DNA of 64,000 bases from positions 19,086 through 83,085 of the forward strand of contig JAPHRO010000042.1 in NCBI GenBank assembly GCA_026195895.1. Direction: 5' to 3'. Origin of the DNA: Gammaproteobacteria bacterium. GTDB lineage: Bacteria; Pseudomonadota; Gammaproteobacteria; SZUA-229. Below the pieces are notes generated by a model. It was not told where the DNA came from. It saw nothing but the letters and a program-made list of their open reading frames with translations, and searched no databases. Position 1 is the first letter of the stretch, and each line of letters starts with the position of its first letter. The position numbers and the translations under genes were made by a program. Shown piece by piece: positions 2,198 through 55,216 of the stretch.

Positions 2198-2593
2198 ATG
2201 CCATGTAATTGTAGAGAAGCGCCAATGCCAATATCATTAAATTATAATAGCGATGAAAATGTTATTTATACAAAAGCCGAGGGAGTGGTTAAGCTTAATG
2301 ATGTTCTTTCATACTTCTCTTCTGTTGCCGCCTTAAACTTACAAAAATCATATCGTGTACTGGCTGATTACTCTGATGTTATTCTCAAGTTAAGTAGCGA
2401 AGACATACATACAATGTCAATTCAAAGAAACATTGATTCAAGTAAAGTTGAATCAGTTAAAATTGCTGTTTATTGTTCTGAAGATTTAACGTTTGGATTA
2501 GGCAGAATATATGAGGCTCTCATTGATTACAATAAATATAATGTCATGATTTTTCGTAGTGAAAAAAAAGCTCGAGAGTGGCTAGGCATTTAA
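2198..2593 (+). CDS. hypothetical small protein, possibly an STAS/SpoIIAA-like fold
   Basis: 131-aa ORF with no recognisable motif. It ends ...KKAREWLGI, reminiscent of anti-sigma-antagonist-like folds. An alternative start is the ATG at 2225 (MPISLNY). Confidence 0.35.
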   Translation: MPCNCREAPMPISLNYNSDENVIYTKAEGVVKLNDVLSYFSSVAALNLQKSYRVLADYSDVILKLSSEDIHTMSIQRNIDSSKVESVKIAVYCSEDLTFGLGRIYEALIDYNKYNVMIFRSEKKAREWLGI

Positions 2594-3019: not shown

Positions 3020-4837
3020 TCAATGCACATCCGGCACCACACCAACCTGCGGCATTTCCGCCAGACCAGATTCACGCGCATGCTCTTCAAAACCCTTGTT
3101 CTTCCAGAAAAATGCGCCAGGCATGGTTGTTGATACTACCAGCACATAAAATAATGCCCTGCTAACAATAGCCGATACCAATACACTGATTGCTATCAGG
3201 CCCCAGATTGTCAATGCCAGCGCACTTTCGGATGACATTAAGCCGAGTAACAGCAAAGCAATGATATTAACGGCCAGTAGCACATTGCGGGTAAAATAGG
3301 TTTTCCCAAACGTTGTGATTTGCTCATAATAAGATACCGAACCTTCACGACCACTGCGGTTTAGATCCCGCGCATGAAAAACGTGACCGATAGCCTCGAT
3401 GACCAGGCCAGTCAACATCACTGTCGCTACCATGTTCAGCAAGGCAATAACCGGCATGTCCATGGACATAAATACCGGTACAAATATCAGCCCCACCAGC
3501 AATCCCCCCATGGTCAGCATGTTGCCGTAAAAAGCGGTCAACACTTGCCAGTGATCCCAGTAGGGGCGCGCTTTGATGCGATAGATTTTATGCATAAAAT
3601 ACAATGCAATCGGACCGGAAATGAGCGCCGCGTAACCAAATATTTCTGCGGCGATTTTCAGTATTTCGACATCGAACATTGAAAATAGAAAATGGCCACC
3701 CAGGCTGTTAATAAACACGGCAATACCCGCCACTTCCCGGCTCACCGGTGAATACCTTAAATTATTAAAGGCTCGATAAAAACGGTGCGGCTTACCCAGG
3801 TGCATGGTTGACAGGAATAAAGCCACCGCTTCAATGCCAAGCATTATGAACAACATGGGCATATAGGCGCCGGAGTTCACCGCCTGTTGCATGGGTAACA
3901 GTCCTGCTTTAGCGCCCAGAAACATTAATAGAAAGGCACCGACCACCGCCTGTGAAACCAGCGTAAACACTACCAGGGGATCTTCACGGGAACGTAATTT
4001 TCGCAAATTCCATTGGCGCGTCAGTCGTTTTTTCCTGTCGACGACCGGTTTAAAAATACCCTTGTTATTATCCTGATGATATTTCACCGCCATGCTATCC
4101 GTGCGTGTCATTTCTTTCGGCAAGGTTTTAGTTTGCTGAAAACGAATATTGGGATTGGTAATATCCGTGGTCGGAAAACCGGGGATTTCAGTTTTCACCT
4201 GTTCGCGATTTTCCGGCGTGTTTTCAATCACACCAAAATTCAGCGCATTACCCAGGCATGCAGAAACACAGGCCGGTTTCAATCCTACTTCAAGACGATC
4301 AACACACATATTACATTTACTGACCTGCCCTTTAACCGGGTCGAGTTGCGGTGCGTTGTAGGGACAGACCCAGGTGCAATAACCACAGCCAAAGCAGATA
4401 TCAGGATCCTGCAACACGGCACCGTATTCAGCAAATTTGGTATAGGCGCGTGTCGGACATCCCTTTAAACAAACCGGATTATCACAGTGGTTACAGGCCA
4501 TGGAAATATTCAGTCGTTTAAATGCCGGATACGTTCCGCCTTCCACATAACCCACGGAACGAAATGCAATATGCGCTGGATTATCATTCTTCTCACTACA
4601 GGCCGCTTCACAGGCATGACAGCCAATACAGTTATCCGCGGTAAAATGAAAGCCGTGCTGCTTGTAACGATTGGGATTGTCACCTATACTCGCGTCGCCA
4701 TTAATATTCAGGCTCTTACCTTTTAATGGATTATTTTCATCAACCAGTTGAATGTCTTTTCCGTAGCGATTTTGTTGCTGGTTGGTTTTATCATTAAGAA
4801 ATGCATATTCTCGTTCACCGTTTCTTATTTCAAACAT
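3020..4837 (-). CDS. fused 4x[4Fe-4S] ferredoxin subunit (DmsB/PsrB/NrfC-like) plus polytopic membrane anchor (DmsC/NrfD-like), encoded immediately after nasA
   Basis: The N-terminal half has four Cys clusters (CIGCHACEAAC; CNHCDNPVCLKGCP; CFGCGYCTWVCP; CNMCVDRL...CVSAC). The C-terminal half (about 330 aa) is multi-pass hydrophobic, with HLGKPHRFYRAF typical of DMSO-reductase-type anchor subunits. Its start lies 2 nt after the nasA stop. Confidence 0.7.
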   Translation of the reverse strand: MFEIRNGEREYAFLNDKTNQQQNRYGKDIQLVDENNPLKGKSLNINGDASIGDNPNRYKQHGFHFTADNCIGCHACEAACSEKNDNPAHIAFRSVGYVEGGTYPAFKRLNISMACNHCDNPVCLKGCPTRAYTKFAEYGAVLQDPDICFGCGYCTWVCPYNAPQLDPVKGQVSKCNMCVDRLEVGLKPACVSACLGNALNFGVIENTPENREQVKTEIPGFPTTDITNPNIRFQQTKTLPKEMTRTDSMAVKYHQDNNKGIFKPVVDRKKRLTRQWNLRKLRSREDPLVVFTLVSQAVVGAFLLMFLGAKAGLLPMQQAVNSGAYMPMLFIMLGIEAVALFLSTMHLGKPHRFYRAFNNLRYSPVSREVAGIAVFINSLGGHFLFSMFDVEILKIAAEIFGYAALISGPIALYFMHKIYRIKARPYWDHWQVLTAFYGNMLTMGGLLVGLIFVPVFMSMDMPVIALLNMVATVMLTGLVIEAIGHVFHARDLNRSGREGSVSYYEQITTFGKTYFTRNVLLAVNIIALLLLGLMSSESALALTIWGLIAISVLVSAIVSRALFYVLVVSTTMPGAFFWKNKGFEEHARESGLAEMPQVGVVPDVH

Positions 4838-4839
4838 GT

Positions 4840-7023
4840 TTAAAACGCCCTCGCTTCTACATTTCTTTGTGCGGCTTCTTTCTGATCGATTTTTTCGATG
4901 CGGACTGCGTTCTGTTTAAATGCGGGCTGCCTGGAATAAGGATCCAGCAGGCCCAGGGTTAACCGATTGGCGCAGTCATGAAAATGAAAAGGTATAAACA
5001 CCATGTTGTATGGGATACGCTGGGTTAACTGCACCATGACCACCGCGTCCGATCGTCTGGACACCACGCGCACATAACTCATGTGCTCTATACCCTGGTC
5101 ATCTGCCGCATCCGGATTCATTTCCATATACGGTGTTGGGCTGTACTTGTTACAGTTGCCCATTTTTCCGGTACGGGTGCGGGTATGAAAATGTTCGACG
5201 ACACGCCCGGTATTTAACCAGAAAGGAAATTCATTGTCGGGACGTTCGTTGTTATCAGCAAACAGCAATGGAATCAGTTTGGCCTTGCCGTCGGCATAGG
5301 GAAATTTACCATCTACGTATAAACGTTGCGCGCCCTGCTCTTCGCCTTCTCTGCATGGCCATTGCAGGCCGCCATTTTTTTCAATTTTTTCATAACTCAT
5401 ACCGGAGATATCAAGATTACGCTCTTTGCCTTTTGACAACTGTTTCATTTCTTCAAAAACTTCTTCCGAGGTTTCCGGAAAATTCATTTGCTGGTAATGA
5501 TTGAAACGTTTAGCTAACTGGTTAAAAATCCACAGGTCAGGTTTTGAATTAGCATAGGGCGGCTGGACATTGGTAATACGATTAACGCGGCGTTCGGTAT
5601 TGGTGAAACAGCCATTCTTCTCTGCCCAGATGGATGCCGGTAAATACATATTGGCGTAGTGCACGCTCTCCACATCACTGTAGGCATCCTGCACGACAAA
5701 GAACTCGAGTTTTTCCAGTGTTTTACGAATCCGCTCGGTATTGGGTAATGAACTCATGGGATTCGAGGCGACCAGCCACAGCGCCTTGATCTGTCCGGTT
5801 TCAATAGCAGGAAAAATATCGGTCTGAAACAGGCCGCGCTTTTTGGGGAAAAATTCTTTATCGATACCCCAGAACTCGGCAATTTCTGCGCGGTCTTCCG
5901 GATTTTCCAGATAACGATAACCGGGCAGGCCCGAACAGGAAGACCACTCTCGGGTACCCATGGCATTACACTGGCCAGTGATGGATAAACTGGTACCACC
6001 GGGCTTACCAATATTGCCGGTGATTAAATTCAGATTATTCACACCGACCACACCGTCGGAACCGTGGGTACTTTGATTAATGCCCATGGTCCAGATCGAC
6101 ATCGCCGCACCGGCTTTGGCATAAAGGCGGGCGACATTACGAATCGTATCCTCGTCGATGCCACATATTTTTGCAGCAGTGATCGGATCATAGTCAGCAA
6201 CTAAAGCTTTAAACTCTTCATAGCCATTGGTATGTGCATTGATGTATTCAGCATCTTCCAGGCCTTCATCTAAAATCACATGCGCCAGCGAATTCAATAA
6301 CACTACATCGGTACCCGGCGTAATGGGTAAATGCATGTCGGCGAACTGAGCCAGCATGGTGACGCGAGGATCCACCACGATGAGTGGAAACTTGCGTTTT
6401 TCCATCGCCTCTTTAAGCCGCCAGTAAATAATCGGATGCTGCTCGGGGAGATTGGAGCCAAAGGCTATTAAACAATCCGTGTGTTCAAAATCTTCATAAC
6501 AACCGGGCGGGCCATCAGCACCGAATGAACGCTTGTAACCCGACACCGCTGATGCCATACACAGCGTGGTATTGCCATCGTAGTTATTAGTACCGATGGC
6601 GCCCCGGGTGAGTTTACCCAGGGTATAAAATTCTTCTGTTAAAATTTGTCCGGTTGAAATAACCGCAACTGAATCACGGCCGTATTTTTCCTGAATGGCT
6701 TTGAATTTTTCAGCCATGGTATCGAAGGCATCATCCCAGCTGATTTCCCTGAAATCCTCGATGTATTTATCGCGGTAGAGTGGCGTTTCGCCCCGCCCTG
6801 CCGTATCAAACAATTCGTGTTCAAAAATTCCTTTCACACAAAGTTTGCCACGATTCACATCGGCACTGGCAACACCGCGGCTCGATACCGCTTTACCCTG
6901 TTTATTAATACCCACTTCGATTGAGCAACCGGTTGAGCAATAACCACAGGTGGTGTATTTCCAGTCAACAATTTCCTTGTCGGCGATCTTGATGGGATTT
7001 TTTTTCTTGCGACCAAACAGCAT
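4840..7023 (-). CDS. nasA: molybdopterin (bis-MGD) nitrate reductase catalytic subunit, assimilatory NasA/NarB type, cytoplasmic (no Tat signal)
   Basis: N-terminal CGYCSTGCSIEV...VNRGKLCVKG is the 4Fe-4S ligation motif of Nap/Nas/Fdh-family Mo enzymes. The 727-aa protein has no NifU/2Fe-2S extension and no RR leader. It lies in an operon with nirBD. Confidence 0.75.
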   Translation of the reverse strand: MLFGRKKKNPIKIADKEIVDWKYTTCGYCSTGCSIEVGINKQGKAVSSRGVASADVNRGKLCVKGIFEHELFDTAGRGETPLYRDKYIEDFREISWDDAFDTMAEKFKAIQEKYGRDSVAVISTGQILTEEFYTLGKLTRGAIGTNNYDGNTTLCMASAVSGYKRSFGADGPPGCYEDFEHTDCLIAFGSNLPEQHPIIYWRLKEAMEKRKFPLIVVDPRVTMLAQFADMHLPITPGTDVVLLNSLAHVILDEGLEDAEYINAHTNGYEEFKALVADYDPITAAKICGIDEDTIRNVARLYAKAGAAMSIWTMGINQSTHGSDGVVGVNNLNLITGNIGKPGGTSLSITGQCNAMGTREWSSCSGLPGYRYLENPEDRAEIAEFWGIDKEFFPKKRGLFQTDIFPAIETGQIKALWLVASNPMSSLPNTERIRKTLEKLEFFVVQDAYSDVESVHYANMYLPASIWAEKNGCFTNTERRVNRITNVQPPYANSKPDLWIFNQLAKRFNHYQQMNFPETSEEVFEEMKQLSKGKERNLDISGMSYEKIEKNGGLQWPCREGEEQGAQRLYVDGKFPYADGKAKLIPLLFADNNERPDNEFPFWLNTGRVVEHFHTRTRTGKMGNCNKYSPTPYMEMNPDAADDQGIEHMSYVRVVSRRSDAVVMVQLTQRIPYNMVFIPFHFHDCANRLTLGLLDPYSRQPAFKQNAVRIEKIDQKEAAQRNVEARAF

Positions 7024-7063
7024 TTAGGGGGAACTCCACTATGTCTTCGTTGTTATTATTTTT

Positions 7064-7375
7064 CTATTTCAATTCCAGAAAAACTTTTCCATCTTCTACT
7101 CTGGTTTTATAGTGGCCGGTACAGCCTTCATCTGGCCCCATGGCTTCACCGGTGGTTAAATCAATTTTCCAGTTGTGCAATGGACAGGTTACTGATTTGT
7201 CGTGAACTATGCCCTGTGACAACTGACCCTGACGATGGGGACAGGCATCATTCACCGCGAACACTTCGTTTTTGGTATTTCTAAATACCGCGATATCGGT
7301 ATCGCCATTCTTAACCACACGCGCACCCAATGGTGGAATTTCTTCCAGGCTACCGACTTCTACCCAGTTTGACAT
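7064..7375 (-). CDS. nirD: nitrite reductase [NAD(P)H] small subunit (Rieske-like)
   Basis: 103-aa protein with CPHRQGQL...CPLHNWKIDL Rieske-type motifs, directly downstream of nirB. Confidence 0.85.
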   Translation of the reverse strand: MSNWVEVGSLEEIPPLGARVVKNGDTDIAVFRNTKNEVFAVNDACPHRQGQLSQGIVHDKSVTCPLHNWKIDLTTGEAMGPDEGCTGHYKTRVEDGKVFLELK

Positions 7376-7450
7376 GTTGTATAACCTCTAATAATTCTTT
7401 CTTGGCAGGTACAGTAAACGCTGCACCTGTGTTTACTAAAATCTGAGCGC

Positions 7451-9889
7451 TTAACCAGCGACGACTTTTAATGGCACGAATTCGTGCGCATCGACACCAC
7501 CAGTTGCACGCTGCGCCCATGGATCATGCTGGGATTGAGTCACTTCCTGAGATTCGTAGAAACGTACTGCCAGTTCTTTACGTTGTGCATCATCTTCCAG
7601 ACTGCTCTGAACATAGGAAAAACCAACGCGTTCAATCCACGGTGCAGTACGTTCCAGATAGCGCGCCTGTTCGCGATATAACTGAATAAAAGCTGCCGAG
7701 TACTCAAGTACTTCCTCTTCGGTATCGACGCGTTTTAATAAATCAGTGGCGCGAACTTTTATGCCGCCGTTACCACCAATATGTAATTCGTAACCGGAAT
7801 CGACGCAGACCACACCGAAATCTTTAATGGTGGCTTCGGCACAGTTGCGCGGACATCCGGAAGCGGCCATCTTGAATTTATGCGGCATCCATGACCCCCA
7901 GGACATCTGCTCCAGCCTGATACCTAAACCGGTTGAATCCTGAGTACCAAATCGACACCATGCTTTACCGACACAGGTTTTAACAGTCCGTAATGCTTTG
8001 CCGTAGGCATGGCCAGACACCAGACCCTGTGCATTCAAATCTTTCCAGATTAATGGCAACTCATGTTTTTTAACCCCGTATAAACCAATGCGTTGTCCAC
8101 CGGTAACATGTACCGTATCCAGCTCAAATTTTTCAGCTACATCAGCAATGGCACGTAATTCTTTGGGTGTGGTCATGCCCCCCCACATACGTGGAATAAC
8201 GGAATAGGTACCGTCTTTCTGAATATTGGCGTGAGCACGTTCGTTGATAAAACGTGACTGCGGATCATCGTAGGCTTCTTTGGGCCAGCTGCTGATCAGA
8301 TAGTAATTCAACGACGTGCGACAGGCGGCACAGCCGTCTTCGGTTTTCCAGTTCAGTTTTTCGAATACATCAGTAATTCTGGTGAGCTTCTGATCTTTAA
8401 TGGCTTGGCGAACATAGTCATGATTATGCTCGGTACAGGCACACATAGGTTTCGCTACCGGTGATTCATAATCACTACCTAAAGTGCTTTCCAGAATCTG
8501 TTCGACCAGACCGGTACAGGAGCCACAGGAAGACGAGGCTTTGGTATGGGCGCGTACTTCATCCAGCGTGAACAAACCGTGCGTGGTAATGGCATTGACC
8601 ACATCGCCTTTGCAGACACCGTTACAGCCACAGATTTCTGTATCGTCAGACATCTCGGCAACCACGTTGCCGCCATGGCCTGAATTACCCAGATGCGCCT
8701 GACCAAACATCAGTTGATCACGAATGTCGGCAATGCTGGTGCCTTCACGCATTAACTGGAAGTACCAGGCACCATCAATGGTGTCACCGTATAAAACGGC
8801 GCCTAAAATTTTATCGTCTTTAACAACTACTTTTTTGTAAATGCCTCGGGTTGCATCACGCACGATGATGTCGTCGGTGGTTTCATCGCCCATGAAATCA
8901 CCCGCGGAAAATAAATCGATGCCGGTGACTTTTAACTTGGTTGAAGTCACTGAACCCTGGTAAATACCGATACCATATTTTGCCAGGTGATTGGCGCAGA
9001 CTTTGGCCATTTCAAATAAAGGTGCAACTAATCCATAACACTGACCGCGGTGCTGTACACATTCACCGATGGCATAAATTTTTGGATCGAAGGTTTGCAG
9101 CGTATCGTTAACAACAATGCCGCGTTCACAATGTAAACCGATCTGTTTGGCCAGCTCGATGTTCGGACGAATACCCACCGCCATCACCACCATATCGGTT
9201 TCGATTTCAGAGCCATCGGCGAACTTAACTTTTTCAACTTTGCCATCACCCAGAATTTCCTGGGTGGAGGCTTTCATCAGGAACTTCATGCCCTGCGCTT
9301 CCAGTGAATTTTTCAACATCTCACCGGATACCTCATCCATCTGGCGTTCCATTAACCAGTCCATCAAATGCACAACAGTAACGTCCATACCCTGTTTAAT
9401 TAAACCATTAGCGGCTTCCAGACCTAACAGTCCGCCACCGATAACCACCGCGCGTTTTCTGGTTCTGGCTGTCGTCAGCATGCTATCAACATTTTTGATA
9501 TCGCGAAAACCAACAACGCCGGGTAACTCATGACCCGGTACAGGAATAATGAAAGAATCAGAACCGGTGGCCAGCAACAGGCGATCATATTCAGCACACG
9601 TGCCATCCTCACCCGTCACCTTACAGGTTTTACGATCAATGGCAGTAACTTTCACGCCTTTATGCAAAGTAATATTATTGTCTGCATACCATTGCAGATC
9701 ATTGAGCATAATTTCATCAATAGTTTTATCACCACAGAGCACTGGAGATAACAGGATTCGGTTATAGTTACCGTAAGGCTCGGCACCGAAAACAGTAATC
9801 TCATATTTTTCAGGCGCGATCTTGAGCAGTTCCTCAACAGTACGCATCCCTGCCATACCATTACCAATAACAACCAGCTTTTCTTTCAT
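7451..9889 (-). CDS. nirB: nitrite reductase [NAD(P)H] large subunit (FAD/NAD, sirohaem, Fe-S)
   Basis: MKEKLVVIGNGMAG Rossmann start and BFD-like Cys motifs. The ORF track extends to a TTG at 9913. The ATG at 9889 with a GGAG 8 nt upstream fits the NirB family N-terminus. Confidence 0.85.
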   Translation of the reverse strand: MKEKLVVIGNGMAGMRTVEELLKIAPEKYEITVFGAEPYGNYNRILLSPVLCGDKTIDEIMLNDLQWYADNNITLHKGVKVTAIDRKTCKVTGEDGTCAEYDRLLLATGSDSFIIPVPGHELPGVVGFRDIKNVDSMLTTARTRKRAVVIGGGLLGLEAANGLIKQGMDVTVVHLMDWLMERQMDEVSGEMLKNSLEAQGMKFLMKASTQEILGDGKVEKVKFADGSEIETDMVVMAVGIRPNIELAKQIGLHCERGIVVNDTLQTFDPKIYAIGECVQHRGQCYGLVAPLFEMAKVCANHLAKYGIGIYQGSVTSTKLKVTGIDLFSAGDFMGDETTDDIIVRDATRGIYKKVVVKDDKILGAVLYGDTIDGAWYFQLMREGTSIADIRDQLMFGQAHLGNSGHGGNVVAEMSDDTEICGCNGVCKGDVVNAITTHGLFTLDEVRAHTKASSSCGSCTGLVEQILESTLGSDYESPVAKPMCACTEHNHDYVRQAIKDQKLTRITDVFEKLNWKTEDGCAACRTSLNYYLISSWPKEAYDDPQSRFINERAHANIQKDGTYSVIPRMWGGMTTPKELRAIADVAEKFELDTVHVTGGQRIGLYGVKKHELPLIWKDLNAQGLVSGHAYGKALRTVKTCVGKAWCRFGTQDSTGLGIRLEQMSWGSWMPHKFKMAASGCPRNCAEATIKDFGVVCVDSGYELHIGGNGGIKVRATDLLKRVDTEEEVLEYSAAFIQLYREQARYLERTAPWIERVGFSYVQSSLEDDAQRKELAVRFYESQEVTQSQHDPWAQRATGGVDAHEFVPLKVVAG

Positions 9890-9935
9890 GCAACAAACTC
9901 CAAAATGGGGCAAATAATTTATTTAGGAGCGTAAT

Positions 9936-9951
9936 CGCAATATGTATGCCA
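9936..9951 (-). promoter_or_regulatory. sigma-54 (-24/-12) promoter for nirB-nirD-nasA operon
   Basis: Reverse complement reads TGGCAT-acata-TTGCG (GG and GC 12 nt apart), about 47 nt upstream of the nirB ATG. Nitrate-assimilation operons are classically NtrC/sigma-54 controlled. Confidence 0.55.
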
Positions 9952-10040
9952 GATGGCAAATAATTATTTAAGTTATTGTTTTAGAAAATTTATATTGTTT
10001 TTTATTTATCTAAAAAAATAATAAGTAGCAGACAAAAACC

Positions 10041-10061
10041 GCACTATGCTGGTGCGCCGCA
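10041..10061. promoter_or_regulatory. GCAC-N7-GTGC-N2-GCAC palindromic element, candidate NtrC-type enhancer site in the nirB/narK divergent region
   Basis: gcactatgctggtgcgccgcac approximates the NtrC half-sites TGCACC/GGTGCA and lies between the two sigma-54 promoters. Confidence 0.3.
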
Positions 10062-10284
10062 CTACAATAAAGCATTTAATAACATTCTTTTAACAAAGCT
10101 AATCAGGATCGATGAAATACCTGCCAATAACATATTAATCGAGCTTGCACCATGTTGAACCATTCAGTAATTTTTTAATGCAGCGCAAAACAAATTACGC
10201 ACCCTTATCGCTCAATCAGCCCCGCATAAATTTATAAAAAAAGTTCAAACCTTTGTTTTAATTCGTTTATTTTCTATTGGCATT

Positions 10285-10300
10285 GTTACTGCTTTAGCCA
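10285..10300 (+). promoter_or_regulatory. sigma-54 (-24/-12) promoter for the nitrate transporter gene
   Basis: TGGCAT-tgtta-CTGCT has the correct GG/GC spacing and sits immediately upstream of the transporter ORF. The likely start is GTG at 10335 with GGAG at 10322..10325. Confidence 0.5.
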
Positions 10301-10319
10301 GGGCACATACAATTTAAAT

Positions 10320-11804
10320 TTGGAGATTCACGCTGTGTCCAGCTCACAACTCAATCTGTTTTCCTTTAGCGGCAATACACGAATACTGCATTTCACCTGG
10401 TTTGCTTTCTTCTTAAGTTTTGTCATGTGGTTCAACCTGGCACCTTTTAAAGAATCGGTAATGGCCGCCTTTGACCTCACTGACCAGCAATGGAAAACTC
10501 TGCTGATTCTGAATATTGCGCTGACCATTCCGGCGCGCATTATCATCGGTATGCTGGTCGATAAATTTGGCCCCAGGATTATGTACAGCGCTCTGCTGTT
10601 CTCCTCGAGTCTGCTCTGTTTTGCTTTTGCCATGGCCGACAGTTTTGAGATGATGGCTATCATGCGTTTCCTGATGGGTTTCGTCGGGGCCGGTTTTGTT
10701 ATCGGCATTCGTATGATCGGCGAATGGTTCCCGGCTAAAACCGTTGGCGTTGCTGAAGGCGTTTACGGTGGCTGGGGTAATTTTGGTTCAGCGGCGGCAG
10801 CGATGTCACTGCCGACCCTGGCACTCATGTTCGGCGGTGACGATGGCTGGCGCTATGCAATTGCCTCTACCGGCGTGATTGCCCTGATCTATTCCGCGAT
10901 CTATTACTTTAACGTGCATAACACGCCAAAAGGCTCGACTTACTTCAAACCAAAAAAAACCGGCGCCATGGAAGTCACCAGCAAAAATGATTTTTATCTG
11001 TATGTGGTGATGAATATTCCCATGTACATCGCCCTGGCGGTGCTGAACTGGAAACTCGGCCCTGCTAATCTTGGCATGCTCACCGATACGGCCAGCACGG
11101 CGATTTACCTGATACTGTTTGCCATGTTCGTTTATCAATTTGCACAGATCTGGAAAATCAATAAACATATCTTTACCGAAGAAGTAGCTGAAATTCATCG
11201 CTATAAATTCAAACAGGTCGCGGTGCTGAACCTGGCCTACCTGGTGACCTTCGGTTCTGAACTTGCTGTGGTTTCTATGCTGCCTGGCTTCTTTATGGAT
11301 ACCTTTGAACTGACCCAGGTACTGGCGGGTACGCTGGCAGCCGGTTTTGCCTTTATGAATCTGGTAGCACGCCCCGGCGGCGGCCTGTTCAGCGACAGGT
11401 TTGGCCGCAAGAAAACCCTGATGTTCCTCCTCGGTGGCCTGACGATTGGTTATCTGATGATGAGTCAGATCACCTCCGGCTGGATAATCGCAGCAGCGGT
11501 TATGACTACGATGGCCTGTTCATTCTTTGTGCAGGCCGGTGAAGGTGCAGTATTCGCCATGGTGCCGCTGGTTAAACGTCGCATGACTGGACAGATTGCC
11601 GGCATGGCTGGCGCTTACGGTAACGTTGGTGGCGTGACCTTCCTGACCGTTTACTCCTTCGTCGAGCCGGCAACTTTCTTCATGGTGATTGCCGCAGCGG
11701 CCGTTGTAACCTTTGCGATCATTGCTATTTTTATGGAAGAACCTGAAGGCCATATAGCTGAAGTCATGCCTGACGGCACGGTAGAAATGATTGAGGTTTC
11801 ATAA
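10320..11804 (+). CDS. narK: MFS nitrate/nitrite transporter (NNP family, NarK/NasA type)
   Basis: 12-TM MFS with the NNP-family N-terminus and a GGWGNFG glycine-rich motif. It is divergent from the nir/nas operon. The true start is possibly GTG at 10335. Confidence 0.8.
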
Positions 11805-11879: not shown

Positions 11880-13589
11880 ATGACCGGCAAGTTAACAGTA
11901 TCCATCGGACAAAGTTCCGATAAAGGCATCAAGCCGCAAAATGAAGATTCCTATGGCGTACTGAGCCCCGACGACAAGTTACTGGATAGCAAGGGTATCG
12001 CCGCTATTGTGGCCGACGGCATGGGTAGTTGCGCCTATCCCAGGGAAGCCAGCGAATACTGTGTAAAAGGTTTTTTTAGCGACTACTACAGCACGGCTGA
12101 TTCCTGGACGGTAAAAACCTCCGCCGCCAAAGTGCTCACGGCACTAAATAGCTGGCTCTATGGTAAAAGCTCGAACGATCAGGTCAGGGCCTACGTATCA
12201 ACCTTTAGCGCGCTGATCATTAAATCAACCACGGCCCATATTTTTCAGATTGGTGATTCACGCATTTATCGATTTCGTGACGGCATGCTGGAACAACTCA
12301 CCCAGGATCATCGGGTCTGGTTTTCCCAGGAAAAAAATTATCTGAGTCGCGCCATTGGCATCGACCTGCATCTGGATATCGATTACAAAACCCTGGAAGC
12401 TGAAGTGGACGACCTGTTTATCATGACCACCGACGGCGTGCATGATTATGTCAGCGATCAACAGCTTAAAAATCTGCTGACCGGTACAGGCGATCTGGAT
12501 GTGATCGCCGATAAAATTGTCATGATGGCGCTGGAGCAGCAAAGCCATGACAATGTCACCTGCCAGATTATTCGGGTCGATAAACTTCCCAGTCAGACGG
12601 CCAGTGAAGTCTACCGTGAACTGGCGAAACTGCCCTTTCCCCCCGAGCTGGAACCGGGCATGGAACTGGATGGCTACCGGATACTCAGGGAAATAAGTGC
12701 CAGCCCCACCAGCCAGCTATATCTGGTTGAAGACAGGGCATCCGGCCAGCACATGGTGATGAAAACACCCTCGGTTAATTACGATGACGATCCGTCTTAT
12801 ATCGAACGCTTTCACCTGGAAGAATGGGCCGGCAAACGGCTCAGACACAAAAATATACTGGCAACCTACGAACAAACCCGCCCGCGAAACTTTCTGTATT
12901 TCCTGATGGAATACATCGACGGCCAGACGCTGGCGCAATGGATTCAGCAAAACCCGACACCGGATATTAAAATCGTCACGGGCATCATTGAACAACTCAT
13001 CCAGGGTATACGCGCTATCCATCGCATGGAAATGCTGCACCGGGATTTGAAGCCGGATAACATCATCCTTACTCCCGATGGCATCGTAAAAATCATCGAT
13101 TTTGGCTCGATTAAAATCGCCGGTATTCAGGAAATCAGTACGCCGGTAGAACGACTGGAGCTGCTGGGCACCAGGAACTATACTGCACCCGAGTATCTGA
13201 TCGGCATGGCCGGCAGCAACAAATCCGACCTGTTTTCACTCGGCATTATCTGTTACCAGATGCTCACTGGAAAACTACCCTATGGCGATCGCCTCAACCG
13301 CAATAGCAACTGGCGTTCCATTAGTAAAATCCGCTACATTTCAGCGCTCAATTACAATCCAATGATTCCATTGTGGCTGGATGGTGCAATTGAAAAGGCC
13401 GTGCGCTGCGACGCACGCATGCGTTATGAGACTTTTTCCGAGTTTTTCCACGACCTCACCCACCCCAATAATTCTTTCATGAAACAGAATTTGCCCCTGA
13501 TCGAAAAGAATCCGCTTGTTGTCTGGCAATTGATCGCGGCAATTCTGGCCATCGGCAATGTTATCCTGGCCTATCTTTTATTAAATTAA
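11880..13589 (+). CDS. fusion protein: N-terminal PP2C-type Ser/Thr phosphatase, Hanks-type Ser/Thr kinase, C-terminal transmembrane anchor
   Basis: The N-terminus (about 250 aa) has PP2C metal-binding motifs (GKPQNEDS; VADGMGS; TDGV). The kinase domain has HRDLKPDNIIL, DFG and APE-like motifs. The C-terminal LVVWQLIAAILAIGNVILAYLLL is hydrophobic. It sits beside the nitrate transporter, as in Pseudomonas nas loci, which carry a Ser/Thr kinase. Confidence 0.75.
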   Translation: MTGKLTVSIGQSSDKGIKPQNEDSYGVLSPDDKLLDSKGIAAIVADGMGSCAYPREASEYCVKGFFSDYYSTADSWTVKTSAAKVLTALNSWLYGKSSNDQVRAYVSTFSALIIKSTTAHIFQIGDSRIYRFRDGMLEQLTQDHRVWFSQEKNYLSRAIGIDLHLDIDYKTLEAEVDDLFIMTTDGVHDYVSDQQLKNLLTGTGDLDVIADKIVMMALEQQSHDNVTCQIIRVDKLPSQTASEVYRELAKLPFPPELEPGMELDGYRILREISASPTSQLYLVEDRASGQHMVMKTPSVNYDDDPSYIERFHLEEWAGKRLRHKNILATYEQTRPRNFLYFLMEYIDGQTLAQWIQQNPTPDIKIVTGIIEQLIQGIRAIHRMEMLHRDLKPDNIILTPDGIVKIIDFGSIKIAGIQEISTPVERLELLGTRNYTAPEYLIGMAGSNKSDLFSLGIICYQMLTGKLPYGDRLNRNSNWRSISKIRYISALNYNPMIPLWLDGAIEKAVRCDARMRYETFSEFFHDLTHPNNSFMKQNLPLIEKNPLVVWQLIAAILAIGNVILAYLLLN

Positions 13590-13696: not shown

Positions 13697-15625
13697 ATGC
13701 CTGCCAATCAACAAACCTCTGCCGAAGTCATCGACCTGAGGAAAAGCCTGCGCAACCGAGAGGCTGAAATTGAGTTATTGCAGGAAACTTTTGAGCAGGT
13801 GGGCAGCGAACTGGAGCTGGAAAAAGTCTTCCAGATTGTGGCTGAACGCGCCCATCAACTGGTACAGGCTGAAACCATACTTATTCCGATACTGGACGAC
13901 GACTGCGAAACTTACACCTATCGCGGCGGTTCGGGTAAAAATGCCAGCGAAATCGTGGGTGAATCACTTCCCATCAACTTCGGGGTCTGCGGCTGGGTAT
14001 GGCGACATAAAAAAGCCTGGTGGCGTGGCATACTCGATGAACTCAACGAAGAAGAGCGCAATCTCTGGGAACAGGAAGCCGGCACGGTCATACTGGTTCC
14101 CCTGCAAGGAAAAAAACACTTTCTTGGTGGCATCGCCGGCATTAATAAAATTGGCGGCGGCGAGTTTGATCGTCGCGATATGGTATTACTTTCACTGTTT
14201 GCCAGCATTGTTGCCATAGCGATTGAAAACGCCATGGCAGTGCAAAGAATTGAATATGCCAACCAGACCAACGAAAAAAATCAACACCGATTAGAACGAC
14301 TGAATCGCCAGCTCATGGAAAGCAGTCGAGAACTGGAACAGTTGTCGCTTTATGATCCGGTAACCTCCCTGCCAAATCGGTCGCTGTTTCATGATCGCCT
14401 CAATCAGAACATCTCGGTTGCTCAGAAAAACAATCAGCATATTGGTGTACTGCTGGTGGATCTGAATAACTTCAAGGGCATTAATGAAACGCTGGGTCAC
14501 GAACAGGGTGATCAGTTACTCAAGGAATTTGCTCAACGATTACTCAGCATTCTTAATCCCGACGAAACCATCAGCCGACTGGGGGGTGACGAATTCGGTC
14601 TAATACTGCCCAAGTCCGATGCCAAAAAAACGCTGGCCCGCGGCAGGAAACTGCTTCAGCTACTGGATGATTACTTTGTGATAGATCATGCAGAAATCAC
14701 CATCGGCGCCTGTATAGGCGCCTGCATCTATCCAGATCATGGCGATGATATTGCCAATTTATTACGTCGTGCTGATAACGCCATGCATAACGCAAAAAGA
14801 CAAAAGCGCGATATATTTCTCTATGATCCCGAAGAAGATCATTCGTCCATGCGTCAGCTCACCATGGCTACGGATTTACGCAAGGCCTTCGATGAAAACC
14901 AGTTTGAACTGTTTTACCAGCCCAAAATAAACATGGCAGACGATAGCCTGATTGGTGTTGAAGCACTGGGCCGCTGGAAACACCCTTTACGCGGCTATAT
15001 TCCGCCCGCTATTTTTATTCCTAATCTTGAGCAATTAGGCATGATCGACAGGTTCACCTATAAAGCCATTGAATTAGCACTGGATCAGATTAGCCAGTGG
15101 GAACAACAGGGATACAACATTAAAGTTGCGATCAACTTATCTACTCAGACATTAATGAATCCAGAATTCATTCTTCATCTAAAAGATATTATTAAAAATC
15201 CTGCTACCGGCGAAAAATTACTCTTTGAAATTACCGAAAATTTATTCCTGTCAGAATATGATCGACTATCCGAGACTTTAGCTTTTATCAGAGACCTGGG
15301 TATTCATCTTTCCATTGACGACTTTGGTACCGGCTATTCATCACTCAGTCGATTAAAAAAATTGCCGGTTAGCGAATTAAAAATTGATCAGTCATTTGTT
15401 ACCGACATGATTGATGATGCTGATGATAAAGTTATCGTGAAGTCGACCATAGAGCTGGCGCATAATCTCGGCCTGAACGTGGTTGCCGAAGGCATAGAAA
15501 CCGAAGATGTATATAAAAAACTTAAACTAATGGGTTGTGATATCGCCCAGGGTTATTTTATTAGCAAACCCATACCCAGTAATGAATTCGATCAGTTTTT
15601 ACAACAGCAAAACATCTCCAGTTAA
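13697..15625 (+). CDS. GAF-GGDEF-EAL c-di-GMP turnover protein
   Basis: Coiled-coil N-terminus, GAF-like region, RLGGDEFGL (GGDEF) and EALGRW (EAL) motifs with the C-terminal EAL signature DDFGTGYSS. Confidence 0.8.
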   Translation: MPANQQTSAEVIDLRKSLRNREAEIELLQETFEQVGSELELEKVFQIVAERAHQLVQAETILIPILDDDCETYTYRGGSGKNASEIVGESLPINFGVCGWVWRHKKAWWRGILDELNEEERNLWEQEAGTVILVPLQGKKHFLGGIAGINKIGGGEFDRRDMVLLSLFASIVAIAIENAMAVQRIEYANQTNEKNQHRLERLNRQLMESSRELEQLSLYDPVTSLPNRSLFHDRLNQNISVAQKNNQHIGVLLVDLNNFKGINETLGHEQGDQLLKEFAQRLLSILNPDETISRLGGDEFGLILPKSDAKKTLARGRKLLQLLDDYFVIDHAEITIGACIGACIYPDHGDDIANLLRRADNAMHNAKRQKRDIFLYDPEEDHSSMRQLTMATDLRKAFDENQFELFYQPKINMADDSLIGVEALGRWKHPLRGYIPPAIFIPNLEQLGMIDRFTYKAIELALDQISQWEQQGYNIKVAINLSTQTLMNPEFILHLKDIIKNPATGEKLLFEITENLFLSEYDRLSETLAFIRDLGIHLSIDDFGTGYSSLSRLKKLPVSELKIDQSFVTDMIDDADDKVIVKSTIELAHNLGLNVVAEGIETEDVYKKLKLMGCDIAQGYFISKPIPSNEFDQFLQQQNISS

Positions 15626-46054: not shown

Positions 46055-47773
46055 CTAATCTGCCTTACCTATTTCATTCAATGATTGCAGAAGATATTTT
46101 TTCTGTTCTTTAAGTTTAGAATTGTCCATCGTTTTTACACGATGCAAAACCAATTCATAACCGGATAATTCAAAAATATCATCAAATTTAGTTTTATCTT
46201 CCTTATTCAATCCCCTGGCTGTACTTTTCACAGTAAACCTGGGCACATCTAGACGCGCTAGTATTGCTAATTCTTTTTTGGCAATATCTTGAGGAAGACC
46301 TTTTGAGAAGACAGATGGAAATTTATTACATAATTGATATATATAATCCACATATACCGCGCCATTTTTTAGTGCTGCTGGTACAACAGCAGAATGAATT
46401 ATATGCAAATAGGAACCTGTCCTGCGCATATTAAAACGCACATCAAGCTCTTTAAATTCATTTAATGGACTATCATCCGAAAGCAGATTTTCTTTTTTTT
46501 CCTGAATAAGCTTATAGGCATACTCAAAACCATCAATAACGAAGTCTCTATATTTATGTACACGTTGATATTTTTCATTTATAAAGGGCAGGGCCATGTT
46601 TTCATTTTCCGGATCAAAAAATCCAACCGCACTGATATCCCCTGTTTTTCCTGTACGCCTTTCCTCTATGATCGGAAACAATCTAGTACCAATAACTGAT
46701 TCATAATAATTATTCTGAATATCATAAATGGATTGATCTTTAAATTCGGCGTTATTTCTATCGACATATAGTGGATAAAATAACATTTCATGATCAATAA
46801 AAAAGGGGGCATTAGCATGAGCTATTAGATTGTCGTGGTGATAGTCTGATCCTCTAATAATATACAAAATAGCTCCGAACATGCCTATTCTTTGATAAAA
46901 TTGTTCTATGTCTTTTTCAGATTCGCAGGGTTTATTACTAATAAATTTGGACCAACCATAGGTAAGTTTATTAATTACAGGAACTGAACTCAATTTTAAT
47001 TCAGCTTTATTATCTTGCTCGTTAAACCAATCAACAAATTTCTTGAACGCATGCTCGGCAAGCATGTTCTTGGGTTTGTATACTATTTTGTTTTTATGAT
47101 CGAAACTGACAATTACCACAGTTTGACCGTATTCATGCGGATCAGACAAATCAAGTTGAAGTTCAGAAATAGTTTTAATAACTTCTTCACCAGTAATATT
47201 ACTATGCCTATCAAAAAACACCTGATCTAGTTGCGCATAATCAGCTATTAGTCGCTTGAACAATATTGATGTTGCCTGAATCCAGTAATTTGTATGCATT
47301 GCCAATAATCTTGCCAGCACATTATATTCTTTAAATAATCGTAATGGATTAGCATATATCTGTTTAATATACCCCTCAATATCCATACCAGAAAATTGAG
47401 AACTGTCTTGTTTTTCTTTATAGCTAATTGATATGGTATATGAACAAATATAAACCAGTTTTTTCGCTAGTTGATTTTCCAGATCCAGTTTGCATTTATC
47501 ATCAAGAGCCCCATAAAAGACACCAGACAATGATAATAACTCTATTGTGGCGACTTTTATAAAGGGCGTGATTAGTGCAATATAAAAATCATCATCATTG
47601 CCTTGCTTATATTTATTAGGACCGTTATAAGGGATTCTTTTATACTGCTCAATAGCCGACGATAATAATATCATCCATCGCGCAGTATTGTTACCATCTG
47701 GCACAGTTTCAAAAGGAAACCTTGAATTATTAATAATACCAAGATATTTTTTATTAAGTTTAATTTTTTTCAT
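46055..47773 (-). CDS. stand-alone LanM-N-terminal-like (DUF4135, lipid-kinase-fold) dehydratase-domain protein with no LanC cyclase domain
   Basis: Motif GSDYHHDNLIAHANAPFFIDHEMLF fits the D-x-H-x-x-N ... D-x-E catalytic pattern of class II lanthipeptide synthetase dehydratase domains. The 572-aa length corresponds to the dehydratase half only. Confidence 0.5.
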   Translation of the reverse strand: MKKIKLNKKYLGIINNSRFPFETVPDGNNTARWMILLSSAIEQYKRIPYNGPNKYKQGNDDDFYIALITPFIKVATIELLSLSGVFYGALDDKCKLDLENQLAKKLVYICSYTISISYKEKQDSSQFSGMDIEGYIKQIYANPLRLFKEYNVLARLLAMHTNYWIQATSILFKRLIADYAQLDQVFFDRHSNITGEEVIKTISELQLDLSDPHEYGQTVVIVSFDHKNKIVYKPKNMLAEHAFKKFVDWFNEQDNKAELKLSSVPVINKLTYGWSKFISNKPCESEKDIEQFYQRIGMFGAILYIIRGSDYHHDNLIAHANAPFFIDHEMLFYPLYVDRNNAEFKDQSIYDIQNNYYESVIGTRLFPIIEERRTGKTGDISAVGFFDPENENMALPFINEKYQRVHKYRDFVIDGFEYAYKLIQEKKENLLSDDSPLNEFKELDVRFNMRRTGSYLHIIHSAVVPAALKNGAVYVDYIYQLCNKFPSVFSKGLPQDIAKKELAILARLDVPRFTVKSTARGLNKEDKTKFDDIFELSGYELVLHRVKTMDNSKLKEQKKYLLQSLNEIGKAD

Positions 47774-47931
47774 GCCAAATAACTAATTTTATATAGACCA
47801 TATTTAATCACGAAATTTAAATAGCGGGGTGTATCTTTTTATTATTCAGTGCTCGGCCAAATTATACTTCTGAAGGAGTGGCTACATTCGTCACACATTT
47901 GTGTAAATTAACTTTCACGCTCACATACTTT

Positions 47932-50307
47932 CTACAATTTTTTTATAATCAGTTCTGCTTCTTCATGCCCCTGAAACTTTCTGCCACTTTCAAGCGCTTT
48001 CCCCAAAAAAACTCTAGCGGCATCCTGATTTCCAATTTTGTAATATGCCATACCAAGGTGATATTGAAATATAGGAATATCACTCGCTTTTTCCACTACT
48101 TTCTCAAGAATTGGTACCGCTTTGTCAATCTCACCGGTTTTATAATAAATCCAGCCTATCACATCTAGAAACCCAGGATTTGTTGAATCTTCAAAGGGCA
48201 TAGCAAGTTCTTTTGCTCTTTTCAGACTTTCTGCATCACCTTTTCTGTCTGCCAAAAGAAGCGCAAGATTATTTACAGCCAAAGTATTACTGGAATCAAT
48301 AATCAGAATTTTATCATAGATATTTATCGCCTTTTCATGATCATCCTGACGCTCATAAATTTTCGCTAACTTTGCCATAATCTGAGTATCTTTCGGCAAA
48401 ATTCCGAGAGCCTGTTGATAAATACGAATAGCACCACTTTCATTTCCTTGTTTAAGATAAAGATTCGCAAGACTTATATAAGGTAATGACCATTTGCTGT
48501 TTAATTCAATGGCTTTATGTATTGCTTTTTCTGCCTCCGAATTCTTCTTCTGCGCCAGATAGACTTCACCCAATAACTCATAAGGTATTGCATTTTCTGC
48601 ATGCTCCTTAATCAGCGCATTCAATCTATTAATTGCATTATCGTACTGCTTTAGTTGTAAATGAAGTTTAATAATGGTTGCCATCAATGGCAATAATTTA
48701 TTTGATCTTTTTAGCGCAGCATCATACTCTGTGAAAGCCTTCGGAAATTGCTTTGTAGCGGCATAATAATCCCCCTTCAATTGGTAGCCGTCGGGTCTTG
48801 CTGGATGTGTGGACTTGATTGTATCAATCATTTCACTTACTTCATCCATATCATGCCTGGCTATTGCATATTTTACCTTCATCTTTAATGCATCAATATG
48901 TTTGGGCGAAACTGTCAGTAATTTATTGATTTCTTTTTCAGCTACATCAAGCCTCCCTGCTTTTTGCAAATAATTTGCATAGTTTATATACATCTCTGGA
49001 TTACCAGGCGAATCAGTAATCCCTCTTCTCAGTACTTCCTCAGCCAATTCCGGTTCATTGTTTTTCATGTGTGCAACTGATAATAATGATACAGCTTTGA
49101 CTAAACCCGGCTGATGCTTAATAACAGTTCTAAATGAGCTAATAGCAACGTTGTAGTCCTTCTGGTCAAAAGCGACTCTCCCCTTCATAAATAACGCATC
49201 ATTATCACCCGGATTAGTATCCAGAACTTCCTTAATAAGCTGGCTTGCAACATCAGGATCTTTTTGTTTTAAAGCTATTTTAGCCAGTTTATTTCTTGCC
49301 TTAAGACCATTGGGCTTATAGCCATCAAGTTTGATAATTTCCTGATAGACGTCCACTTCTTTTCCAGGTCTCATTGTTTTATACAGCTCAGCCAATACAA
49401 AGCGCAATTTGAACAATTCAGGATTTTTTTCGATGGCCGATAGCAACGTTTTTTCTGCTCCTTTTACATCTTTGCGCTTAGCCTGGAATTCAGCTAAATA
49501 CAAATACCCTTTCTCATCATATGGATTTATAGATATAATATTCCGAACAGCCTGCTCCGCCTTGTCAAGCTCATCACGTCGTGTATAAAATGAGGCCAGA
49601 TTGATATGAGAAGAAATATTTTCAGGGTCAAGAGAGATAATATCTTTTAATACTATTTCTGCATTTTTATAATCTTTTATCCTGGCATAAACCTCTGCCA
49701 GCTGAACTCTCAGGCTTTGCTCATGCGGCAAAGAATTTATGCCTTTTTTTAGAACTTCGATCGCCTTATCATTTTCTCTGGCTTTTGTATAAAGCACCGC
49801 AAGGGTACGAATTGCATCAATTTGAGCGGGATCTTCTGTAAGAAGATTTTTTGCATAAGGTATTGCTTCTTTATCATTTGTCTGGAACATTACAAACAGT
49901 TTTAGCAGCTTTCCATCCATACTTTCTGGATCAATCGAAACAATCACATCTAAAATTTCTTTTGCCTTGTCAACATCCCTGCTTCTTAGGTAAATCCGTG
50001 CCAGTTTTGCCTGTGCTTTCGTATGAGTTAAATCAAGCTCTACCGCCTGCTTATAATTGGCAAAAGCCTGACGTAAATTTTGGCGTTGTTCTTCAAGCAA
50101 TCCCATCATGTAATAAGCTTCAGAATATTTTGGATCTATCTGTAATGTATTTTTAAACTCTATCCTGGCTTTGTCATAATTGCCTTCCTTAAAGTAAGCC
50201 CTGCCCTTCTCCAGATAAGACTCTTTACGCGCATCTTCACCACTGCAACCTAATAGCATAATAGCCAAACAAACAATTGAGATTAATCTAAGTTTAAGAA
50301 ATCTCAC
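47932..50307 (-). CDS. prsT: PEP-CTERM system TPR-repeat lipoprotein (PrsT family), copy 1
   Basis: Lipobox MLLGCSG, then about 20 TPR units over 791 aa. The N-terminus is collinear with copy 2 (YLEKGRAYFKEGNYDKARIEFKN...). Confidence 0.7.
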   Translation of the reverse strand: MRFLKLRLISIVCLAIMLLGCSGEDARKESYLEKGRAYFKEGNYDKARIEFKNTLQIDPKYSEAYYMMGLLEEQRQNLRQAFANYKQAVELDLTHTKAQAKLARIYLRSRDVDKAKEILDVIVSIDPESMDGKLLKLFVMFQTNDKEAIPYAKNLLTEDPAQIDAIRTLAVLYTKARENDKAIEVLKKGINSLPHEQSLRVQLAEVYARIKDYKNAEIVLKDIISLDPENISSHINLASFYTRRDELDKAEQAVRNIISINPYDEKGYLYLAEFQAKRKDVKGAEKTLLSAIEKNPELFKLRFVLAELYKTMRPGKEVDVYQEIIKLDGYKPNGLKARNKLAKIALKQKDPDVASQLIKEVLDTNPGDNDALFMKGRVAFDQKDYNVAISSFRTVIKHQPGLVKAVSLLSVAHMKNNEPELAEEVLRRGITDSPGNPEMYINYANYLQKAGRLDVAEKEINKLLTVSPKHIDALKMKVKYAIARHDMDEVSEMIDTIKSTHPARPDGYQLKGDYYAATKQFPKAFTEYDAALKRSNKLLPLMATIIKLHLQLKQYDNAINRLNALIKEHAENAIPYELLGEVYLAQKKNSEAEKAIHKAIELNSKWSLPYISLANLYLKQGNESGAIRIYQQALGILPKDTQIMAKLAKIYERQDDHEKAINIYDKILIIDSSNTLAVNNLALLLADRKGDAESLKRAKELAMPFEDSTNPGFLDVIGWIYYKTGEIDKAVPILEKVVEKASDIPIFQYHLGMAYYKIGNQDAARVFLGKALESGRKFQGHEEAELIIKKL

Positions 50308-52186: not shown

Positions 52187-52364
52187 TAGAAATAGCGCTA
52201 TCGCAAGGTTATATAGAAAAATTAATTTTTAGTTAAAAAACAGATAGTTAGATTATGAATATTTTAATTTTTTCATTTAATTGGACGACTAAAGATCCAC
52301 TTACATTCAATTAAATAACTAGATGATATTCTTTATATAAGATTATTTTATAAGCAAATACTAA

Positions 52365-55168: not shown

Positions 55169-55216
55169 TATATAAGGAAGATATTTAAGATTAAAAAGAA
55201 TATTACATAGCTACAG

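Follow-up and report, generated by a model that had tools for sequence, protein, structure and literature searches.

The 64,000-nucleotide stretch analysed here (hereafter the window; Gammaproteobacteria bacterium, assembly GCA_026195895.1, contig JAPHRO010000042.1, positions 19,086 to 83,085) carries on its minus strand, between positions 3020 and 9913, four tightly packed open reading frames (ORFs) in the order nirB-nirD-nasA-fusion gene. The distal half of this operon pairs a nitrate reductase catalytic subunit (NasA) with a single protein that joins an iron-sulfur (FeS) domain to a membrane anchor (the fusion), and it is the probable working of these two as a membrane-bound, quinol-fed enzyme that concerns us. 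The interval 3020-7023 comprises exactly two co-directional minus-strand ORFs, with the coordinates given in a first-pass annotation of the sequence: nasA (4840..7023, 727 aa) and the fusion gene (3020..4837, 605 aa), only 2 nt separating the nasA stop codon from the fusion ATG. The same annotation regarded the fusion as the only candidate redox partner in the operon, a claim that we had to abandon since nirD (7064..7375) and nirB (7451..9889) lie directly upstream on the same strand; by the same token, its expectation that no NADH-dependent reductase is encoded nearby formally fails in the window. NirB (TIGR02374, 934.7 bits against a cut-off of 578) is the large subunit of an NAD(P)H-dependent sirohaem nitrite reductase with flavin adenine dinucleotide (FAD)/NAD(P)H, BFD [2Fe-2S] and sirohaem domains, whose start is, from the start-codon context, most likely the ATG at 9889 (the mechanical ORF begins at a TTG at 9913). 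The small subunit NirD (TIGR02378, 103 bits against 74.65) keeps all the ligands of a Rieske [2Fe-2S] cluster (C45, H47, C64 and H67), and with this full ligand set resembles the NasG ferredoxin of Paracoccus; the NirD of Escherichia coli is not known to bind a cluster. A divergently oriented narK (10320..11804, plus strand; TIGR00886, 318.9 bits against 311.7) encodes a NarK-family nitrate/nitrite transporter.

The NasA polypeptide consists of Molybdop_Fe4S4, Molybdopterin and Molydop_binding domains only, and Pfam detected in it no NifU/BFD or flavin extension, leaving no domain for another donor. Furthermore, its N-terminus (MLFGRKKKNPIKIADKEIVDWKYTTCGYC...) lacks a twin-arginine translocation (Tat) motif, and this short, motif-free leader is kept in 104 orthologues, so that the absence of both leader and extension asserted at first pass is borne out (two apparent RR matches among the orthologues were discounted, as they lie upstream of the real start codon). 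The ligands of the N-terminal [4Fe-4S] cluster (FS0: Cys26, Cys29, Cys33 and Cys62; 6838..6948) fall within the Molybdop_Fe4S4 domain, and Cys155 (codon 6559..6561, motif NTTLCMASAV), the predicted molybdenum ligand, aligns with Cys140 of Desulfovibrio desulfuricans NapA, the monomeric enzyme that is also the best solved relative of NasA (2NAP, E=4e-130) and with which it shares the conserved active-site arginine. The residue that follows the ligand is methionine, as in Nap and Nas enzymes, and not the histidine of (Se)Cys-His formate dehydrogenases. None of the curated NCBIfam equivalogs was reached: NasA scored 526.9 bits with the NCBIfam NasC model (NF047855, cut-off 1100), 468.5 bits with NasA_Halo (NF041323, cut-off 1000) and, as its top NCBIfam score, 584 bits with Fdh-alpha (cut-off 666), while the 30.7 bits obtained with narG (TIGR01580, cut-off 1084) place it apart from NarG-type subunits. 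NasA thus forms a distinct subfamily outside the curated models, and we call it a nitrate reductase on account of the Cys-Met motif and the gene context rather than of a curated match. Its architecture is that of an assimilatory-type enzyme binding a molybdenum bis(pyranopterin guanine dinucleotide) cofactor (Mo-bisPGD), with an N-terminal four-cysteine [4Fe-4S] motif, a cysteine ligand to molybdenum and no export signal, and it clusters with nirBD and narK both in the window and in most related loci.

The fusion brings together, in one chain, the B and C subunits of a complex iron-sulfur molybdoenzyme, as had been noticed from the translation and as Pfam, the cysteine inventory, AlphaFold2 and Foldseek all corroborate. 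It opens with an extension (residues 1-59; 4661..4837) that may contact NasA; its conserved columns are kept in the Gamma- and Betaproteobacterial family and it is absent in Nitrospirota-type relatives, these distant fusions beginning at about residue 60. A four-cluster ferredoxin domain follows (residues 60-235; 4133..4660; Fer4_11 at residues 112-203, 80.9 bits), in which the cysteines are arranged as 70/73/76/80, 115/118/123/127, 148/151/154/158 and 175/178/190/194; these are exactly the 16 cysteines of the protein, and all are invariant among the homologues. After a linker (residues 236-285; 3983..4132) with a strongly basic end (KKRLTRQWNLRKLRSRED) comes a membrane domain of the DmsC/NrfD fold (3140..3982), which matches nearly the whole DmsC profile (PF04976, fusion residues 285-566, profile positions 7-275 of 275, 84.6 bits against 22.3) and contains eight transmembrane (TM) helices (286-310, 325-347, 364-386, 391-419, 431-458, 464-492/495, 511-533 and 539-565). 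The loop between TM2 and TM3 (residues 344-368, TMHLGKPHRFYRAFNNLRYSPVSRE; 3734..3808) is, from the alignment with E. coli DmsC, the presumed quinol site, and the predicted cytoplasmic C-terminal tail (residues 567-605, TTMPGAFFWKNKGFEEHARESGLA...; 3023..3139) is conserved from Gammaproteobacteria to Nitrospirota, being family-specific and absent from E. coli DmsC.

The ferredoxin part is 37% identical to E. coli DmsB, and the membrane part, aligned end to end, is 25% identical to E. coli DmsC. The DmsB equivalog (TIGR02951) is not reached (156.7 bits against 214.1), so that the FeS domain is a relative of DmsB and not a DmsB. Modelled by AlphaFold2 with 66 diverse homologues, the fusion attained a predicted local distance difference test score (pLDDT) of 88.8 and a predicted template modelling score (pTM) of 0.87; a run with 63 close homologues returned a confident membrane domain and an FeS domain with a pLDDT below 50 (unusable). 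The eight helices were modelled at pLDDT above 90 in both runs, and hydropathy agrees with them. Searched by Foldseek, the FeS domain retrieved PsrB, FdnH and ArrB (best PsrB, 2vpw_B, TM-score 0.73 normalised to the target) and the membrane domain retrieved PsrC (2vpw_C, E=6e-4) together with ActC of alternative complex III (8k9e_C, 6lod_C and 6f0k_C). PsrB and PsrC are subunits of a polysulfide reductase that depends on quinol.

Predicted orientation of the fusion and its candidate quinol site

We grouped the loops of the fusion by membrane side and counted lysine plus arginine residues (K+R) in 63 family members. The loops on the FeS side hold on average 17.1 such residues (minimum 14), as against 0.29 (maximum 2) in those on the opposite side; the last 25 residues of the linker contribute a mean of 7.5 and the TM2-TM3 loop a mean of 4.9. 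Neither the fusion nor NasA carries a signal peptide or a Tat motif. By the positive-inside rule, this bias would place the FeS domain, the TM2-3, TM4-5 and TM6-7 loops and the C-terminal tail in the cytoplasm; the periplasmic FeS module, which would have spoken against the first-pass proposal, is therefore not what the loop charges predict. The fusion is accordingly predicted to be the mirror image of E. coli DmsC, in which a hand count found 8 basic residues on the side away from DmsB and 5 on the other.

The conservation of the membrane domain is one-sided as well. In E. coli DmsC, mutant studies point to a role of His65 and Glu87 in the binding of menaquinol; at the aligned positions the fusion has His346 and Glu368, both of them invariant in an alignment of 66 sequences that spans Gammaproteobacteria to Nitrospirota. 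In the same alignment, each of the 23 invariant positions of the membrane domain falls either in a loop on the cytoplasmic side or in a part of a helix close to that side, and none was found in the periplasmic loops. This pattern fits a quinol site situated beside the FeS domain, on what would be the cytoplasmic face; since the invariant positions lend no support to a conserved proton path across the membrane, it also favours an electroneutral reaction.

Distribution of the nasA-fusion pair

The joining of B and C modules had been thought uncommon at first pass, which proved mistaken: relatives of the fusion are present in at least 583 GTDB species-representative genomes. The carriers include Methylobacter, Methyloglobulus, Methylophaga, Cycloclasticus, Thiotrichaceae and Oleispira, as well as Hahellaceae, Gilvimarinus, Litoribacillus, Thiobacillaceae and Rhodocyclaceae. 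Some can be cultured, namely Gilvimarinus polysaccharolyticus YN3 (L069) and Litoribacillus peritrichatus JCM 17551 (L015). A library of representatives at 50% identity yielded 550 matches at E<=1e-30 (a figure that includes fragments and more distant FeS/DmsC proteins), and the same architecture of about 600 aa recurs in thousands of proteins, from which it follows that the fusion is no assembly artefact.

We fetched 160 loci from genomes and metagenomes, 142 of them with usable upstream sequence, and in 141 of these 142 nasA lies directly upstream of the fusion gene on the same strand (median gap 93 nt; 20 nt or less in 35 loci), the sole exception being a contig of 2.3 kb. The pair is not always in the company of nirBD: of the 70 loci whose flanks reach 5 kb or more on each side, 19 showed no nirB-like gene (one of the 19, L033, being a frameshifted assembly), and in Hahellaceae, Oleispira and others the pair stands by itself among unrelated neighbours (such as miaA, a hydrolase and an HDOD protein). 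Furthermore, where nirB is present, the identity of its product to the NirB of the window has a bimodal distribution, 18 loci lying at 34-40% and 53 at 50% or above, with NasA identity remaining at 67-89% throughout these loci; NasA identity correlates with that of the fusion at r=0.77 and with that of NirB at r=0.46. The L033 contig, from a betaproteobacterial long-read metagenome-assembled genome, also presents a 1,378-aa ORF (5718-9854) spanning NasA and the fusion, which we considered as a natural fusion of the two and rejected as a frameshift artefact; its middle 400 residues are low-complexity, out-of-frame sequence.

The pairing extends to distant fusions (31-49% identical). A metagenome scan seeded with them returned mostly the same Gammaproteobacterial family. 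In two Nitrospirota-type contigs (L162 and L168) the genes for the molybdoenzyme, the fusion, NirB, NirD and molybdenum cofactor (Moco) synthesis follow one another in order, and in one of the two PII and a major facilitator superfamily (MFS) transporter lie upstream (PII genes occur in L162). A contig from Leptospirillia (L164) shows an MFS transporter, a kinase, nasA and the fusion gene and no nirB, while a further locus (L166) combines a NirA-type nitrite reductase, the fusion, Moco genes and the molybdoenzyme, with no nirB within its 11-kb stretch. Where checked, the partners in Nitrospirota and Leptospirillia have a CM(A/S)S molybdenum-ligand motif and no Tat leader. The exact operon layout of the window reappears in an endosymbiont of the tubeworm Galathealinum (L169). 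Taken together, these observations show nasA and the fusion gene to be a nearly obligate two-gene unit across phyla. In the endosymbiont locus (L169 10892-14225), three genes that the window lacks come after the fusion gene; they encode a DsrC-like protein, a MoxR-type AAA ATPase and a protein of the VWA type.

Electron supply to NasA

On the strength of sequence and structure models, we consider it probable that NasA and the fusion make up a two-polypeptide, membrane-bound nitrate reductase with its catalytic side in the cytoplasm and with quinol as its electron source; what we infer throughout is, in short, a plausible cytoplasm-facing quinol:nitrate oxidoreductase. The donor, which in these aerobes is presumably ubiquinol, would bind at the cytoplasmic face of the DmsC/NrfD-like domain, in the loop that holds His346 and Glu368, and its electrons would travel through the N-terminal domain of the fusion, by way of the four [4Fe-4S] clusters there, to the N-terminal [4Fe-4S] cluster of NasA and on to the Mo-bisPGD ligated by Cys155. 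There, nitrate imported by NarK would be reduced to nitrite, which NirBD would in turn convert to ammonium with NAD(P)H. Because the anchor is without haem and its conserved residues are all on the cytoplasmic side, the reaction is most likely electroneutral, the protons of quinol being released on the side where nitrate reduction would use protons. The gain for the cell would be that, of the eight electrons which each nitrate requires, two would come from the quinol pool instead of from NAD(P)H or ferredoxin. We favour quinol as the donor because the fusion stays with nasA, because nirBD is often separate from the pair and because the residues of the cofactor and quinol sites are invariant.

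Some observations weigh against this model. In the window, nirB and nirD share the operon and NirD has kept its Rieske ligands, so that a route of the NADH-NasB-NasG-NasC type is available in principle; moreover, the genomes in which nirBD does not adjoin the nasA-fusion pair may encode it elsewhere. The DmsC of E. coli uses menaquinol, and the lineages that carry the fusion are expected to use ubiquinone. The earlier proposal of assimilatory nitrate reduction fed with quinol on the cytoplasmic face has, in this balance, the predicted topology, His346/Glu368 and the near-obligate pairing on its side, and has lost the exclusivity that it claimed, since nirBD offers an alternative donor within the same operon.

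Were the quinol model right, NarGHI would be its closest functional analogue, likewise a membrane-bound quinol:nitrate oxidoreductase with a cytoplasmic active site and with a four-cluster FeS subunit (NarH, a remote homologue of the FeS domain of the fusion) placed between the anchor and the molybdenum subunit. The differences are nonetheless considerable: the catalytic subunit is Cys-ligated and of Nap/Nas type and not of NarG type, the anchor is a haem-less DmsC/NrfD protein in the place of dihaem NarI (so that we expect neither a redox loop nor electron transfer across the membrane), a single polypeptide holds both the FeS and the anchor module and the gene context is assimilatory. DmsABC and PsrABC are built of the same three modules, and the electron-transfer modules of the window system are of DmsBC/PsrBC descent; the fusion departs, however, from what is usual in the DmsC family (a separate polypeptide, its FeS-binding face periplasmic and its partners Tat-exported), for B and C are fused, the system appears inverted (no Tat signal, reversed positive-inside bias) and the catalytic subunit comes from the Nas/Nap clade. 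A precedent for an inverted DmsABC-type architecture would be PadBCD, the phenylacetyl-CoA:acceptor oxidoreductase of Thauera aromatica, which probably faces the cytoplasm, its substrate being a CoA thioester, although this enzyme oxidises its substrate and reduces quinone, belongs to another catalytic clade and keeps its B and C subunits separate. In Nap systems the polyferredoxin NapG and the membrane protein NapH link quinol to the reductase; while NapA is the closest solved relative of the catalytic subunit studied here, Nap is exported by Tat to the periplasm, NapH is no relative of DmsC/NrfD and the NapB/NapC cytochromes are absent from our system.

The soluble assimilatory enzymes (Paracoccus NasC-NasB-NasG, Klebsiella NasA-NasC, Bacillus NasC-NasB, cyanobacterial NarB and Azotobacter NasB) share with the NasA of the window a cytoplasmic, Cys-ligated Mo-bisPGD, an N-terminal [4Fe-4S] cluster and the clustering with nitrite reductase and nitrate transporter genes. 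They take their electrons from NADH via flavoproteins, or from ferredoxin or flavodoxin (PMC6618116, PMC7331816); NasA differs from them in having a dedicated membrane-integral FeS partner and no extension domain.

The most serious competitor of the quinol model, although in our judgement an unlikely one, is a Paracoccus-type route in which NADH reduces the FAD of NirB and electrons pass over the Rieske protein NirD/NasG to NasA, leaving to the fusion an accessory role (as a tether or as an overflow link to the quinone pool). A NADH-dependent complex of NasB, NasG and NasC is the published model for P. denitrificans (PMC6618116), and its counterparts are at hand: nirB and nirD sit immediately upstream of nasA in the same operon, the four Rieske ligands are kept, and nirBD adjoins the pair in most loci. 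The route is, on the other hand, hard to reconcile with the persistence of the pair without nirBD nearby in 19 of the 70 loci that have long flanks (5 kb or more on each side), with the NirA-type nitrite reductase that accompanies it in L166 and with the combination of two very divergent NirB lineages with one lineage of NasA and fusion; an accessory role would, in addition, leave the near-obligate adjacency, the 16 invariant cysteines and the invariant quinol-site residues unexplained. The same residues bear on a reading to which we give little credence, namely that NasA does receive its electrons from the ferredoxin domain, which would itself draw them from something soluble (ferredoxin, flavodoxin or NirB), while the membrane domain would carry out no quinol chemistry and only hold the enzyme near NarK. 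Short NasA/NarB-type enzymes elsewhere do use ferredoxin or flavodoxin (PMC7331816), and quinol is a donor that we infer; yet the membrane domain is most conserved precisely in the loop homologous to the quinol site of DmsC, His346 and Glu368 are invariant from Gammaproteobacteria to Nitrospirota, and a passive anchor would have no need of eight NrfD-fold helices with conserved polar residues.

Two further alternatives concern the function of the enzyme instead of its donor. That the pair is built like a respiratory complex iron-sulfur molybdoenzyme, and that it occurs by itself away from nitrite reductase and transporter genes, could be taken to mean that its role is chiefly dissimilatory or redox-balancing, as a cytoplasm-facing analogue of Nar or Nap for which assimilation is secondary. 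We regard this as improbable, given that the window and most loci present an assimilation cluster of nirBD, narK and kinase genes (some of them, as L162, with PII genes) and that the fusion has neither haem for transmembrane charge separation nor any conserved feature on its periplasmic side. Least probable of all is that the molybdoenzyme acts on something other than nitrate (as a formate dehydrogenase or a reductase of another oxyanion) and is connected by the fusion to the quinone pool: its top NCBIfam score is indeed that of Fdh-alpha (584 bits) and the nitrate reductase equivalogs all remain below their cut-offs, but so does Fdh-alpha, the Cys-Met motif is that of NapA, NapA is the best solved relative and three phyla have conserved a gene context with nirBD, narK and Moco genes. 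We rejected the identity of NasA as a formate dehydrogenase on the motif and the gene context.

Going beyond the quinol model, we tentatively raise the possibility, which we rate at somewhat below even, that the system typifies, next to Nar and Nap, a third class of architecture among the nitrate reductases that depend on quinol, in which a Nas/Nap-clade catalytic subunit is served on the cytoplasmic face by a fused, inverted DmsB-DmsC/NrfD module, and which would be widespread and tie nitrate assimilation to the respiratory quinol pool. Its carriers comprise methanotrophs, methylotrophs, sulfur and iron oxidisers, chemosynthetic symbionts and Nitrospirota. In the boldest version of this proposal, the NrfD-like domain would expel the quinol protons and assimilatory nitrate reduction would conserve energy.

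According to a 2020 survey of the DMSO (dimethyl sulfoxide) reductase family, neither four-cluster FeS subunits nor membrane anchors ever accompany enzymes of the Nas/Nap/Aio/Fdh clade (PMC7331816), a statement that the occurrence of the fusion-nasA system in at least 583 species genomes contradicts. The follow-up survey (PMC10100899) leaves the gene for the fusion unmentioned, descriptions of nas clusters (e.g. PMC8527097) overlook it, and we found no published description of the NasA-fusion system in the full-text literature (subscription journals not covered). In databases the gene is labelled 'DMSO reductase anchor/iron-sulfur subunit', an annotation that would need fixing, as it can lead to the false inference of DMSO or polysulfide respiration in metagenomes. 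Our analysis suggests membrane quinol, and not NADH or ferredoxin, as the source of electrons for nitrate reduction in many bacteria that oxidise methane, sulfur or iron. If quinol is the donor, nitrate assimilation would compete directly with respiration for it, and the energetic cost of growth on nitrate would need to be re-estimated for organisms in which NAD(P)H is expensive, such as sulfur, iron and methane oxidisers and chemosynthetic symbionts. The system would also illustrate that the module of a complex iron-sulfur molybdoenzyme can occur in nature turned round towards the cytoplasm.

Flanking genes and regulatory features

The divergent intergenic region between nirB and narK (about 430 nt) includes the leader of the operon (9890-10319), in which a terminator-like hairpin (CGCACCAGCATAGTGCG then GTTTTTGTCT; 10040-10056, minus strand) lies about 150 nt 5' of the nirB start. 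By analogy with other nas operons, this hairpin could belong to a nitrate/nitrite-responsive antitermination leader; no ANTAR/NasT or NasR gene was noticed among the neighbour genes examined, and Rfam gave no match anywhere in the window, leader hairpin included. At the other end of the operon, about 110 nt past the stop codon of the fusion gene and in an AT-rich, apparently non-coding stretch, we observed a 20-nt inverted repeat (2797-2816 / 2894-2913; 95% complementary), whose 77-nt spacer makes too long a loop for a simple terminator. Between the nas operon and a DnaJ-related gene, which recurs downstream of the fusion in close relatives (L002-L004 and L169), there is a 131-aa ORF (2198-2593, plus strand) with no Pfam match.

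Past narK, on the plus strand, a fused PP2C phosphatase/Ser-Thr kinase (11880..13589; identified by Pfam) is a probable regulator; it is syntenic in many loci, accompanying narK and the nas genes in Gammaproteobacteria and Leptospirillia alike, and this company suggests a phospho-regulation of nitrate uptake or assimilation. It is followed by a GAF-GGDEF-EAL protein (13697-15625). Farther along the window, the interval 46055-57625 harbours regulators of the XrtA/PEP-CTERM exosortase system, among them PrsK (52750-54891), a PEP-CTERM-box response regulator (50783-52186) and two PrsT-like TPR proteins (47932-50307 and 55217-57625), together with a 572-aa protein (46055-47773) that matches only the N-terminal third of LanM lanthipeptide synthetases.

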